DNA of 38,729 bases from Actinomycetota bacterium (lineage in GTDB: Bacteria; Actinomycetota; UBA4738; CALAEC01), in contig JBOGVX010000231.1 in the NCBI GenBank assembly GCA_050693165.1, positions 1 through 38,729 on the forward strand. The letters run 5' to 3'. The notes beneath the pieces were generated by a model. That model was not told where the DNA came from, made no database searches, and worked only from the letters and a program-made list of their open reading frames with translations. How positions within the stretch are numbered: the stretch's first letter is position 1; each line of letters opens with the position of its first letter. Shown piece after piece: positions 17,100-20,728 of the stretch. Both the position numbers and the translations under genes were made by a program.

Positions 17100-18236
17100 C
17101 TAATGCACGAAGTCCACGACGTCGCAGCCGTGGAACACGAAGTTCATCGGGCCGAACGTTCCGCGGACGCACGCCATCGTCTCGGTCCCGTCGAGCTCCG
17201 ACTCCTGAGTCCGGAAGTGCAGCACCATGTCGAGGTCTCCGTCCCTGGTCTTCTCGTCAGTCCGCTCCAGGGCATCCTCGATATGGCCCAAGCCGTGGCT
17301 CTCCGACGCTCCTCCGCCCGCGGTCACGACGCCCTCCGGGCCGAACCGGACGGACGTCGCATGGACGGTCAAAGCGTCGAAGTCCGTCGGCAGTCCGTAC
17401 TCGCCCGCCATCGTCGTGAGGATGGCCAACGGGATCACTCCGTTCGACTTGAGGTTGAGAGGATTCTCGAAGCTTCCCGGCTTGATGTTTATCACCACGG
17501 GAACGATGCACTCGACCGTGAACGACTCCTCGGCCGTGTTGTTGCCCGGGAGCGGGTCGGTGTCATCGATGCGATCCGGCGAGATCACGCTCTTGAACGT
17601 GAAGGTGTGCGGCCCCGGCGCCTCGCAGGACAGCGTGTACTCCTCTTCCGATTCGCCGAGCTCCTCGATGCCGACGGCGGGCTCCAGCGAGGACGTCACG
17701 GTGGGGGCAACGGTCGAGCCCGCATCTGCGGAGGCGGTACCGTCGATCCGCACGTCCATCGGGGCGGACGGGCCATGGTTCGTGATGACCTCCTCGAGCG
17801 TCACCGATGCCGGCTGTCCGATCGTGATCTCGCTCGGCGGGTTCTGTGCCTCGTAGCTCACGATTTCGAGGTCGGCCTCGGCAACAACAGTGGACGTCCA
17901 GGTGAACGGATCCTCGGCATCGTCGAACACGGAGCTCGAGACGTTCCCAACCGCCTCAACCTCGACGGGGCCCCCGTTATTGTGAACGAGGTCTGCCGGG
18001 ACGTCGGCGACGATAGAGAAGGATTCCTCGTCCACCTCGCCGTTCGGGCCGAGCGCGGCCATGTTGAAGTCACATGTCAGCGTGTTCGGGGGACCCTCCA
18101 CACACCCGCCGTCGTCCGAGACGTAGTCGAGCTCGGATGGGATCACGATGGTTGCAGTCGTGTCGGCGGCGGCGTCCGGTCCCTGGTTCTGGATCGCGAC
18201 GTCGTACGTGAGCTGGGTCCCCGCCACAACCGGCTC
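17100..18236 (-). repeat. copy A of the duplicated C-terminal module (paralogous to 19601..20728)
   Basis: Protein and DNA similarity are visible by eye. The last 414 nt (17100-17513) are the most conserved part. Confidence 0.75.
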
Positions 18237-19514
18237 GGGATGGCCCACGATGGTGCCGGTCACGTTGGCCCGCGGCTCCGGCTGAACGAGCATCCCCACG
18301 CCGGGATCGGTGTCTTCCATCGATATGGCCGCACCGTTGGCCGTGTTGAAGGGCGGTGGGTCGGGAGGCGTGAACGCCTTGCTGCTGGCTGCCAGGGTGT
18401 TGTGATAGAGGAGCGGGAGTCCCTGACCATCCCCGATCCGCTGAACGTCGATGTGAAGGTGCGCATTGCTGGTGTTTCCCGAGTTGCCCACACGGCCCAG
18501 GAACTGCCCGGGCTCGACCGGCGTGGGTGGGTTCGGGGTCTGGTCTACCTGGCTGGCGTCCGAGGGACAGATGGAATCGGGCATCGTCCCCTGCTGGATG
18601 TGCGCGGTCAGGACCAGGGAATCGCCGATGTCGATCCAGACGAAGTTGCCGTAGTCGCCCACACCCGGCATGTCCGCACCTGGCGATGAGTCGTCGGGAT
18701 GGCCGTTCGCGCACCTCACGATCTCGCCGGGGGCGGTCGCGTAGAGGCCCTTGCCCCAGATGAGATAGTCATCATTCCAGTCGCCATTGCCCAGAAGCAC
18801 CGGATCGTCGGTCTTGCCGACCCACTGGATCCCGTCCCATCGGGAGACCCCCCAGTCCTCCGCGTGCCGCTCCCAGAACTGGTTCCTGTGGTGGTCGCGG
18901 AGCTGGTGGCCGGTGCCGTGCGTCCAGTACTCGCCGGGAGCGAGATCCTTCGCAGCTCCGGGGAAGGCCAGGCTGCCAAGCGGACTGTCGCCCACGTACT
19001 CAGCGAGGCCCATGGTCACCACGACGGGGTCGAAGCCGGCAAAGGTGAGCTCAACCGTGACGGAATCGGCGATCGCGTAGGGATGGACGCGTTCCTCCGG
19101 AACCCTGATTCTCTGCTGTGTTCCGACCGGGACGGTGTTTCCCGGCCATCCCTCGTCGGCGTTCGGCGCGATGACGTAGAAGCCGGTGAGGGTCTGGAAC
19201 GCGGCGACATCGACCGACACGTCGGCCGGGTCGCTGCCGCCCGTGTAGCTGATGTCGACCTTCTCAAGTATCAGCTCGTCGGGTCCGGTGTTCGTCACCC
19301 AGATGTCCTGGTTCATGCGCCAGCCATCCGGCTGCCCCGTCGTCTCGCCCGCGGTGCGCTCGACGAGTATCGCGCCGCCCTCGGACGGCTCGGCCATGTC
19401 CACCGTCAGAGGCGGCTGTGCGGCACTCGCCGGCGTCATGGGTATGAGGATCGCCAGGGTCATGGCGGCGACCGCGGGCGCGCGCCTGGTGTGCTTAGGC
19501 ATCCGTCGTTTCAT
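17100..19514 (-). CDS. large secreted protein: N-terminal domain + M23-like metallopeptidase + DUF11/CARDB-like repeats + conserved 137-aa terminal domain
   Basis: Signal peptide MKRRMPKHTRRAPAVAAMTLAILIPMTPASA. M23-type block PGEIVRCANG...GNFVWIDIGDSLVLTAHIQQG...VEPGQFLGRVGNSGNTSNAHLHIDVQ. DUF11-type repeat VVAGTQLTYDVAIQNQGPDAAADTTATIVIPSELDYVS...C...LTC. The terminal domain is shared with the next gene. SD is AGAGAGGGAGAG. Confidence 0.88.
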   Translation of the reverse strand: MKRRMPKHTRRAPAVAAMTLAILIPMTPASAAQPPLTVDMAEPSEGGAILVERTAGETTGQPDGWRMNQDIWVTNTGPDELILEKVDISYTGGSDPADVSVDVAAFQTLTGFYVIAPNADEGWPGNTVPVGTQQRIRVPEERVHPYAIADSVTVELTFAGFDPVVVTMGLAEYVGDSPLGSLAFPGAAKDLAPGEYWTHGTGHQLRDHHRNQFWERHAEDWGVSRWDGIQWVGKTDDPVLLGNGDWNDDYLIWGKGLYATAPGEIVRCANGHPDDSSPGADMPGVGDYGNFVWIDIGDSLVLTAHIQQGTMPDSICPSDASQVDQTPNPPTPVEPGQFLGRVGNSGNTSNAHLHIDVQRIGDGQGLPLLYHNTLAASSKAFTPPDPPPFNTANGAAISMEDTDPGVGMLVQPEPRANVTGTIVGHPEPVVAGTQLTYDVAIQNQGPDAAADTTATIVIPSELDYVSDDGGCVEGPPNTLTCDFNMAALGPNGEVDEESFSIVADVPADLVHNNGGPVEVEAVGNVSSSVFDDAEDPFTWTSTVVAEADLEIVSYEAQNPPSEITIGQPASVTLEEVITNHGPSAPMDVRIDGTASADAGSTVAPTVTSSLEPAVGIEELGESEEEYTLSCEAPGPHTFTFKSVISPDRIDDTDPLPGNNTAEESFTVECIVPVVINIKPGSFENPLNLKSNGVIPLAILTTMAGEYGLPTDFDALTVHATSVRFGPEGVVTAGGGASESHGLGHIEDALERTDEKTRDGDLDMVLHFRTQESELDGTETMACVRGTFGPMNFVFHGCDVVDFVH

Positions 19515-19557
19515 AGTGCTCTCCCTCTCTTTCGATCAGCGTCTGATTAACCGATCG

Positions 19558-19591
19558 GTGCTGGGCCCGGTCCCGAGACCCGGCCCAGCAC
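19558..19591 (-). terminator. GC-rich hairpin between the two giant genes (possible terminator/attenuator or RNA processing site)
   Basis: GTGCTGGGCC (19558-19567) pairs perfectly with GGCCCAGCAC (19582-19591). It starts 10 nt downstream of the stop at 19601. No clear U-tract follows. Confidence 0.4.
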
Positions 19592-19600
19592 CCAGTCGAG

Positions 19601-20728
19601 CTAGGGGACGAAGTCCACGACGTCGCACCCGTGGAACAGGAAGTGCATCGGACCCCACTCCCCACGGACGCACGCCACCGTCTCGGTCCCGTTGAGCTCC
19701 GACTCCTGGGTCCGGAAGTGCAGCACCATGTCGAGGTCGCCGTCCCTGGTCTTCTCGTCCGACCGTTCGATGGCATCCTCGATGTGGCCGCGCCCGTGCG
19801 ACTCGTGGGCTCCACCGCCCGCGATGACCACTGCCTCGGGCCCGAACCGGACCGAGTTGGGGTGGATCGTGGTGGCATCGAACGCCAGCGGCAATCCGTA
19901 CTCGCCGGCCTCGGTCGTCAGGACCGCAAGGGGGATCACCCCGTTCGACTTCAGGTTCAGCGGGTTCCGGAAGCTCCCCGGCTTGATGTTGATCGCCACC
20001 GGCACGATGCAATCCACGGTGAAGCTCTCCTCGGCCGTGTTGTTGCTCATGTCCGGGTCGATGTCGTCCGGTCGCTCCGGGGAGATCTCGTTGTTGAACG
20101 TGAACGTGGCCTTCCCGGGTGCCGTGCACTCGATCTCGAAGTCCTCGTCAACGTCCCGCTCTTCCTGGTAGCCGAGAGCCGTCTCGACGTGGGACGTCAT
20201 CGAGGGGTTCACCGTCGCGTTGGGGGTCGAGGAGGCCGTTCGCACGACCCGGACGTCCATCGGGGCCGACGGGCCGTTGTTCGTGATCACCTTGTGCAGG
20301 GTCACGGTCTTCGGTTCCCCGATGATGAGCTCGGACGGCGGGTTCTGGGCCTCGAACGAGAGGATCTCCAGATCCGCCTTGGCCTTGACCAGGGTGTCTT
20401 CTATCCTCTGGTCGTTCGACGCGTCCGGATCCTCGGTATCCGAGTCGGCCGTGGCAGTGTTTGTGATCGTGATGGGAGCCCCGTTGTTGTAGACGAGGTC
20501 CCGGGCGATGAACACCGTGATCGAGAAGGTCTCGCTGTCACCCGGGTCCAGTTCGCCGAAGGAGCAGGTCAAAGTCCCAGATGGGCCCTCCACGCAGGTG
20601 TCCGTGTCGCTCTGGTAGGTGACTCCCGATGGCAGCATGTCGATTACCCGGGCGTCCACCGCGGTCGAGGGACCGTTGTTCCGGACCTCGATGGTGTACG
20701 TGAGGGTCTCGCCGGCGAAGGCCGGGTC
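19601..20728 (-). repeat. copy B of the duplicated C-terminal module (paralogous to 17100..18236)
   Basis: See copy A. The terminal domain 19601-20014 aligns without gaps to 17100-17513. Confidence 0.75.

Follow-up and report, generated by a model that had tools for sequence, protein, structure and literature searches.

An uncatalogued C-terminal tail shared by two adjacent secreted proteins with unrelated heads

Why should two neighbouring genes whose products begin with unrelated heads end in the same tail? The question is raised by contig JBOGVX010000231.1 (GenBank assembly GCA_050693165.1) of an Actinomycetota bacterium, whose 38,729 nucleotides are referred to here as the window. Gene A encodes a protein with an M23-like peptidase head and gene B one with an Asp-box (BNR) propeller head, and both continue into a DUF11/CLIPPER domain, an immunoglobulin (Ig)-like middle domain and a C-terminal domain (CTD). 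We found that the middle domain and CTD form a unit that belongs to a large uncatalogued family, which stands, with few exceptions, at the very C-terminal end of secreted proteins whose heads are diverse. The genes and tail domains are as follows (aa, amino acids).

17100..19514, minus strand: gene A, 804 aa, from the open reading frame (ORF) list; signal-peptide-like N-terminus, M23-like head at about aa 32-420, three-domain tail
17880..18236, minus strand: gene A tail domain 1, DUF11/CLIPPER, aa 427-545; Pfam PF01345 with E 3.2e-9, above the cut-off
17511..17879, minus strand: gene A tail domain 2, Ig-like middle domain, aa 546-668; no catalogued family
17103..17510, minus strand: gene A tail domain 3, CTD, a 136-aa terminal beta-sandwich, aa 669-804; DGDxD acidic loop, invariant His pair, conserved Cys
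19601..23638, minus strand: gene B, 1345 aa; signal-peptide-like N-terminus, Asp-box/BNR propeller head, two DUF11 domains, middle domain, CTD
20381..20749, minus strand: second DUF11/CLIPPER of gene B, colinear with the DUF11 of A in the BLASTP alignment; best Pfam stretch 964-1077
20012..20380, minus strand: middle Ig-like domain of gene B, 59% identical to that of A
19604..20011, minus strand: CTD of gene B, 83% identical to the CTD of A, dN/dS 0.19

The shared tail and its family

The two tails are colinear. BLASTP aligned residues 427-803 of A with 971-1344 of B at 232/379 identities (61%, E 4e-144), confirming the paralogous C-terminal module proposed in a sequence-only reading of the window. 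The hand count in that reading, 24 amino-acid mismatches and zero gaps over the last 137 codons, was exact, and the DNA that it called similar (17100-17513 and 19601-20014) is 80% identical and ungapped. Identity climbs along the tail from 40% in the DUF11 segment through 59% in the middle domain to 83% in the CTD; conservation is thus as uneven as was claimed, and divergence is not uniform. The heads of A and B have no similarity to each other by BLASTP, as also claimed. At 804 and 1345 aa the proteins are large and not, as the same reading had it, giant.

Scans of Pfam-A (2025 copy) and NCBIfam 20 named only the first tail domain. DUF11 (PF01345) matches A with 37.6 bits at aa 427-512 (cut-off 24.6) and B with 128.5 bits in two stretches, and TIGR01451 also matches B (76 bits), so the DUF11-type repeat predicted for both tails is secure. 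CLIPPER is the recent new name of DUF11, a CnaA-like Ig domain that is found in the stalks of surface proteins and often carries an isopeptide bond (Protein Sci 2025, PMC12617251). The Lys-Asn bond with its catalytic Asp/Glu occurs in only a subset of the family. On our reading of the sequence, a first-strand Lys is present in the CLIPPER copies of B (DKSDS, SKTDS) and absent from that of A (TGTIVGHPEP).

The middle domain alone matched zero Pfam-A families at E<=10 and none in NCBIfam. Its earlier description as a CARDB-like repeat therefore has no support in the sequence; weak CARDB (PF07705) matches sit on the DUF11 segments. Both CTDs likewise matched zero Pfam-A families at E<=10 and had no NCBIfam match at E<=1, and we rejected the type IX secretion system (T9SS) CTD, PPC and dockerin as identities for the CTD, as none of these family models in Pfam or NCBIfam matched. 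No NCBIfam sorting-signal model of the sortase, exosortase or archaeosortase kinds (LPXTG, PEP-CTERM, PGF-CTERM) matched A or B. The C-termini lie inside the globular domain (...HGCDVVDFVH in A, ...HGCDVVDFVP in B).

We built a CTD profile from the window copies and 19 homologues and scored it against 1.84 billion cluster representatives. It matched 14442 representatives at E<=1e-3, 7061 at E<=1e-10 and 427 at E<=1e-30. A and B themselves scored E 9e-80 and 5e-85, each match reaching the last residue. Domain position was read from the best 149 representatives and architecture from the 106 full-length ones among these. In 130 of the 149 the CTD stops no more than 5 residues from the C-terminus, and the exceptions are mostly short extensions or frameshifted ends. 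Directly upstream of it stands the middle domain in 101/106 full-length representatives; 96/106 have an N-terminal hydrophobic export-type segment, and DUF11 is present in 72/106. A and B share the features of this family: a CTD profile match at the extreme C-terminus with an Ig-like middle domain immediately before it.

A taxonomic scan with one genome per species placed the closest Actinomycetota carriers in metagenome-assembled genomes (MAGs) of Solirubrobacterales (73-78%), with cultured carriers in Nonomuraea, Streptosporangium, Streptomyces, Kitasatospora, Planotetraspora and Actinokineospora. The CTD also occurs in Chloroflexota, Acidobacteriota, Nitrospirales, Gemmatimonadota, Planctomycetota, KSB1, Gammaproteobacteria and Thaumarchaeota. 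In RefSeq and UniProt, family members are named only 'hypothetical protein' or 'DUF11 domain-containing protein', and a literature search found the CLIPPER paper and nothing on the middle-CTD tail.

Six loci from Nonomuraea, Streptosporangium, Kitasatospora and Actinokineospora (L011, L012, L027, L031, L032 and L035) encode proteins of about 1000 aa with an HExxHxxGxxH metzincin-type head, Asp-rich repeats and the same three-domain tail. These too are named 'DUF11 domain-containing' or 'hypothetical' in RefSeq and UniProt (e.g. WP_214323361, WP_187224746).

In P0025 and P0173 a hydrophobic helix and a basic tail, resembling a sorting signal, are added after the CTD, and in P0047 and P0095 an extension after the CTD ends …FLPxL…. 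These cases hint that certain lineages use the CTD together with a membrane or sortase-type anchor.

The databases also hold 'stand-alone' CTD proteins of 130-260 aa. We discarded these as a separate class, since the ones examined were gene-call fragments from short contigs or frameshifted long-read assemblies. At 7273-10399 of L001/L004, gene calling splits an M4 (thermolysin-type) peptidase, DUF11 and the CTD into three ORFs that overlap; frameshifts in a long-read MAG have evidently broken up what is a single gene. Because of this case, many of the stand-alone proteins are likely artefacts. P0007 and P0016 begin in the +2 frame of 'CIVPVAINIKPG'.

The head of gene A matches Pfam Peptidase_M23 (PF01551) with 20.1 bits against a cut-off of 28.7, and only over aa 331-360, which include NAHLHID. 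Peptidase_M23 matches were found in 4/106 scanned representatives (best E 4.6e-9 and 3e-21). These are likely the four proteins that share the head of A, namely P0038 (65% identical), P0071, P0122 and P0102. The M23-like assignment stays below the cut-off for A itself and gains support from matches that probably belong to its head homologues. For the head of gene B we considered the BNR/Asp-box models PF02012, PF13088 and PF15902. At least five Asp-box-like motifs can be read in it (STDSGATW twice, SEDNGATW, STDGGANW and SSNGGGDW), and its sortilin/BNR and F510_1955 glycosylhydrolase matches are all below threshold, with Sortilin-Vps10 at 25.3 against 33 and NF045728 at 73 against 175. Sortilin-Vps10 (4), BNR_2 (2) and BNR (2) match among the 106 scanned representatives at E<=1e-5. 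The head of B is common to seven full-length representatives, including P0026 (75% identical), P0060 and P0028. Both window proteins begin with a basic stretch followed by a hydrophobic export-type segment. The open frame of gene B extends to 23803, and its 1345 aa are counted from the ATG with a ribosome-binding site; this start at 23638 is backed by that site and by the N-terminus of the homologue P0026.

Secreted peptidases are enriched among the 106 heads: S8 subtilases (8), M23 (4), M12B reprolysin-like (2), M4, S1 trypsin and S11. Together with the M4 peptidase of L001, the HExxHxxGxxH head of actinomycete members and the strictly C-terminal position in the best 149, this would fit a pre-peptidase-type C-terminal extension, akin to PPC or a pro-region, that aids folding or export or keeps the enzyme inactive and is cleaved after secretion. 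We consider this explanation unlikely. A disposable pro-domain is disfavoured because the same tail is found on non-peptidase heads, including beta-lactamase-like (7), sortilin/BNR (4), FG-GAP, VWA, PD40 and beta-helix, and because CLIPPER, with its mechanical and proteolytic stability (PMC12617251), would be unexpected in such a region. Neither the middle domain nor the CTD, moreover, resembles PPC (PF04151) or another Pfam family in sequence, and no part of the protein is more conserved than the CTD.

Selection and recombination along the tail

Nei-Gojobori estimates for A against B were made by segment, with pS the proportion of synonymous sites that differ.

DUF11 segment: dN/dS about 0.46, pS 0.65
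Middle domain: dN/dS about 0.46, pS 0.48
CTD: dN/dS 0.19, pS 0.45

In the first half of the CTD dN/dS is 0.13. GC content at third codon positions is 0.85-0.89. Orthologues in other genomes have a pS of 0.5-0.6, the same as between A and B, which means that A-B synonymous sites are close to saturation. It follows that the tail copies are old and that the CTD is so strongly conserved because purifying selection acts on the protein. The uneven conservation of the tail is mostly purifying selection.

We then compared A and B with the head-orthologues P0038 (of A; head 65%; locus L082) and P0026 (of B; head 75%; L083) and counted informative nucleotide sites for each pairing in this quartet.

DUF11: 8 sites join A with B, 46 join A with the A-orthologue (the head tree), 6 join A with the B-orthologue
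Middle domain: 8 join A with B, 13 join A with the A-orthologue, 26 join A with the B-orthologue
CTD codons 669-744: 9 join A with B, 9 join A with the A-orthologue, 4 join A with the B-orthologue
Last 60 codons: 12 join A with B, 1 joins A with the A-orthologue, 1 joins A with the B-orthologue

The segments are heterogeneous (chi-square p 5e-13) and give three blocks with three topologies. The DUF11 segment tracks the head phylogeny (46/60 informative sites), in the middle domain each of the two genes pairs with the orthologue of the other, and over the last 60 codons A and B pair together. Three topologies in three segments make the tail, as judged from these sites, a recombination mosaic. 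In keeping with this, the CTD of A is 83% identical to that of B and only 69% to that of its own orthologue.

Over the last 60 codons, pS between A and B is 0.26, against 0.5-0.6 for every other pair and segment, and codons for the same amino acid differ between A and B in 8/49 cases, compared with 30/62 earlier in the CTD (Fisher p 5e-4). From the synonymous-rate contrast and the quartet pattern, on which the tract rests, the last ~180 nt were probably converted between A and B fairly recently.

17103..17282, minus strand: probable gene-conversion tract in A, last 60 codons; drop in pS, quartet sites 12:1:1
19604..19783, minus strand: probable gene-conversion tract in B, last 60 codons; same evidence as for A

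The sequence-only reading had ascribed the shared module to selection or gene conversion, and we see signs of both: CTD dN/dS of 0.19, quartet heterogeneity and the synonymous drop in the last 60 codons.

The middle domain exists in two sequence types (…CEAPGPHTFTF… and …CTAPGKATFTF…), and their pairing with the M23 and BNR heads is reversed between the window and the L082/L083 orthologues from other metagenomes.

Could the similarity simply be that of a recent local duplication that has not yet decayed, with its unevenness due to chance? The genes are adjacent and co-oriented, and their last ~180 nt are unusually similar. We find this barely credible. Over most of the tail the synonymous sites are almost saturated (pS 0.45-0.65), at the level of orthologues in other genomes; the two heads are not related to each other, and thousands of proteins elsewhere carry the same tail. 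The head-orthologues of A and B, moreover, lie on short contigs and are not adjacent to each other. Outside the tail, the window has no synteny with the closest loci L002, L003 and L005.

Among the fetched loci, two CTD genes within 10 kb occur only in the window and in L054, from a Chloroflexota MAG. There, adjacent genes at 2497-3606 and 4082-5461 have unrelated heads and only a short-form CTD in common, which directly follows the heads without DUF11 or a middle domain. These two CTDs are 78-80% mutually identical, compared with 59-62% to the next best fetched relatives. L054 supports CTD mobility as an independent case.

Leader, hairpin and neighbouring genes

The sequence-only reading had also noted the same leader and Shine-Dalgarno sequence before both genes.

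19517..19534, minus strand: leader and Shine-Dalgarno region of gene A, CGAAAGAGAGGGAGAGCA
23641..23656, minus strand: leader and Shine-Dalgarno region of gene B, CGAAAGAGAGGGAGCA
19557..19592, minus strand: GC-rich 15-bp hairpin without a T-run, directly after the B stop; the 89-nt B-A spacer folds at -48.5 kcal/mol (z -5.8)

An exact common 14-mer, CGAAAGAGAGGGAG, is indeed present at both genes; its end lies 6 nt upstream of the ATG in A and 4 nt upstream in B, and (AG)CA follows it. Its 12-nt core has exactly two exact occurrences in the window, the motif is not at other window genes, and the 13-mer GAAAGAGAGGGAG was found in none of 84 related loci. The common leader thus reads as a short purine-rich, Shine-Dalgarno-like element specific to A and B.

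Between B and A the hairpin may act as a terminator or may stabilise the mRNA; it was missed by a T-run terminator scan. That scan and a promoter scan detected no T-run terminator and no sigma-70-like promoter on the minus strand of A and B, and the three terminator-like matches on the plus strand equal the number expected from shuffles. A smaller hairpin lies just before the shared leader of gene A.

GC content in the window is 64-71%, and the neighbours of A and B are CoA-metabolism genes (methylmalonyl-CoA mutase, acyl-CoA dehydrogenase, 3-hydroxyacyl-CoA dehydrogenase and a citrate-synthase-like gene). In the region 17069-17102, only 31 nt lie between the stop of gene A and the GTG at which the downstream citrate-synthase-like gene (16298..17068) begins, and gene A may share a transcript with central-metabolism genes. 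At 26225..27472 on the minus strand, another M23 peptidase (Pfam E 9e-13) is encoded, which has a PcsB-like coiled coil and lacks the DUF11, middle and CTD tail; tailed and untailed M23 enzymes therefore occur within 10 kb of one genome. Divergent from gene B, a 146-aa ORF at 23758..24198 on the plus strand has a signal-peptide-like N-terminus (MRTKRAVAASTVLVITFTFALSAPPVWSA) and no Pfam match, and may be a small secreted protein.

Possible roles of the tail and known systems

AlphaFold2 (AF2) modelled the CTD alone with a predicted local distance difference test score (pLDDT) of 91, and the middle domain with the CTD at pLDDT 95 and a predicted template-modelling score (pTM) of 0.88. The model indicates that the two domains make up one rigid unit, and the middle domain is predicted as a generic Ig-like sandwich. 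Foldseek searches of the PDB gave no match for the CTD model at E<=1e-3. For the two-domain model they gave only generic tandem-Ig matches (integrin legs, ASH/PapD-like domains, S-layer SbsC) with a template-modelling score of about 0.3, uninformative on function. Scored against PDB sequences, the CTD profile found no relative, with one chance filamin match (E 0.75).

Four CTD residues are invariant (H72, H76, D90 and D130) and eight nearly so (E70, D79, E82, D92, D94, H98, C114 and C129), and the last strand is conserved as FxGCDxVxxVP. The acidic loop contains D90, D92 and D94; its equivalent in short-form relatives has the sequence DxDGDGxxDLV, to which the Pfam FG-GAP model aligns. This suggests that the acidic loop of the CTD is a putative calcium site.

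The tail might be a passive stalk or stabiliser that provides solubility, stability or reach without a specific ligand, its terminal place merely following from the N-terminal position of the enzymes. Each of the three domains is an Ig-like sandwich, CLIPPER is known as a stalk domain (PMC12617251), and short-form relatives of the CTD occur as internal tandem repeats. We judge this quite unlikely. A purely passive spacer is disfavoured because of the invariant His, Asp and Cys residues and the obligate pairing of middle domain and CTD. The terminal domain is, furthermore, the most constrained of the three (dN/dS 0.13-0.19), and in L054 the CTD alone is what the two unrelated neighbours have in common.

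Could the CTD instead be a sorting signal for a dedicated secretion or attachment machine, of the T9SS CTD or sortase/exosortase kind, or a dockerin-like module that docks on a cognate scaffold? Its extreme C-terminal location in 130 of the best 149 representatives, the conserved last strand, the many different cargos and the predicted dockerin/FG-GAP-like calcium loop would all suit such a role, as would its form, T9SS CTDs being small beta-sandwiches as well. In an all-against-all BLAST of ORFs from 81 loci, however, no conserved partner gene was found beside the CTD genes (the best non-self cluster covered 11 loci), and the hosts, from actinomycetes, Chloroflexota and Acidobacteria to Planctomycetes, Proteobacteria and Thaumarchaeota, have very different envelopes. 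A dedicated secretion machine is disfavoured for these two reasons. The CTD also has no hydrophobic or charged sorting tail and no NCBIfam sorting-signal match, and N-terminal Sec-type signals are already there. We therefore regard this role as decidedly unlikely. The sequence-only reading had seen in the tail a common targeting, anchoring or assembly device for different cargos. The cargo part holds, since the tail is on many unrelated secreted heads at their C-terminal ends; a targeting, anchoring or assembly role is no more than possible: there is neither a conserved partner gene nearby nor a known sorting signal, and the carriers have very different envelopes.

Our preferred reading is a shuffled C-terminal module, kept by selection and exchanged by recombination, with the CTD mediating non-covalent extracellular retention or binding. 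We give it an even chance. A would be a Sec-exported M23-type peptidase and B a Sec-exported Asp-box beta-propeller, possibly a glycoside hydrolase, each of which would have gained the same non-catalytic tail of CLIPPER/DUF11 stalk, Ig-like middle domain and CTD. Recombination has swapped tail segments among paralogues while purifying selection holds the amino-acid sequence, that of the CTD above all. The CLIPPER and Ig-like stalk domains may space the enzyme from the terminal domain, and the CTD may use bound calcium, and possibly the His pair (perhaps with another metal), to hold the enzyme at a surface, the cell envelope, the extracellular matrix or a polymeric substrate. Retention or binding would be non-covalent, and the tail would not serve as a signal for a dedicated secretion machine.

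Several points weigh against this reading. We infer the retention or binding role from position, conservation and analogy. Position was inspected for the best 150 of more than 14000 matches. Two of the 150 listed representatives carry internal tandem copies of the short form, P0162 with 8-10 and P0107 with 3, and the CTD fold is thus not intrinsically terminal; among the closest 149, the domain is nonetheless not a generic repeat lacking positional preference. For the exchange by recombination, the quartet orthologues come from different metagenomes, and the conversion tract did not reach significance in a run-length permutation test (p 0.25).

More speculatively, the middle-CTD unit could be a new and widespread anchoring or assembly device for the extracellular enzymes of monoderm-type bacteria and Thaumarchaeota, a calcium- and His-dependent 'plug' for a conserved envelope or matrix component or a receptor protein, with cargos exchanged by recombination at the tail. 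We put this forward tentatively and think it unlikely. If true, the plug would be the functional counterpart of dockerins and T9SS CTDs in phyla without a known system of this kind.

In soil and sediment, hydrolases secreted by Actinomycetota, Chloroflexota and Acidobacteriota drive the turnover of polymers, and how these cells keep these enzymes close is poorly known. The middle-CTD tail marks a large set of exoenzymes with a conserved module that is unnamed in any library. If the tail is a retention or assembly device, its carriers would be a new class of surface-displayed enzymes; exoenzyme localisation would become predictable from sequence, and the tail might serve as a portable display tag. 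At the least, the middle domain and CTD could enter the catalogues as two new domain families, which would improve the annotation of thousands of 'hypothetical' or 'DUF11 domain-containing' proteins.

C-terminal accessory modules on secreted enzymes are already known (PPC, dockerins, T9SS CTDs and carbohydrate-binding modules), and paralogous domains commonly undergo gene conversion. The novelty lies in a very widespread two-domain unit, middle domain and CTD, that is not in Pfam-A or NCBIfam, has no PDB relative and has no name in RefSeq or UniProt.

Dockerins are usually C-terminal on varied enzymes. The CTD resembles the calcium loops of type I dockerins and FG-GAP in its DxDGDGxxDLV-type acidic loop, with the FG-GAP model aligning in short-form relatives. 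It differs in being predicted as a beta-sandwich of about 120-136 aa and not as a helix pair or propeller blade, and no cohesin-like partner was identified. T9SS CTDs (Por_Secre_tail, PF18962/TIGR04183) are likewise conserved Ig-like beta-sandwiches at the extreme C-terminus of many unrelated secreted cargos. To our knowledge, they are essentially confined to Bacteroidota and served by a dedicated outer-membrane machine. The tail family, in contrast, is found mostly in Actinomycetota and Chloroflexota and reaches Thaumarchaeota, with no sequence match to T9SS CTDs and no conserved neighbour gene. The PPC domain (PF04151) is also a small C-terminal beta-sandwich on secreted peptidases of several catalytic classes, whereas the tail of A and B has three domains, occurs on non-peptidase heads as well and has no detectable sequence similarity to PPC.

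Like the fibrillar-adhesin-type CLIPPER proteins (PMC12617251), A and B are predicted to be Sec-exported and are modular, with a functional head, an Ig-like stalk that includes CLIPPER and a terminal element. Unlike them, A and B have one or two CLIPPER copies and not long arrays, their heads are of hydrolase type and not adhesins, and they end in a globular uncatalogued beta-sandwich in place of an LPXTG or archaeosortase signal.

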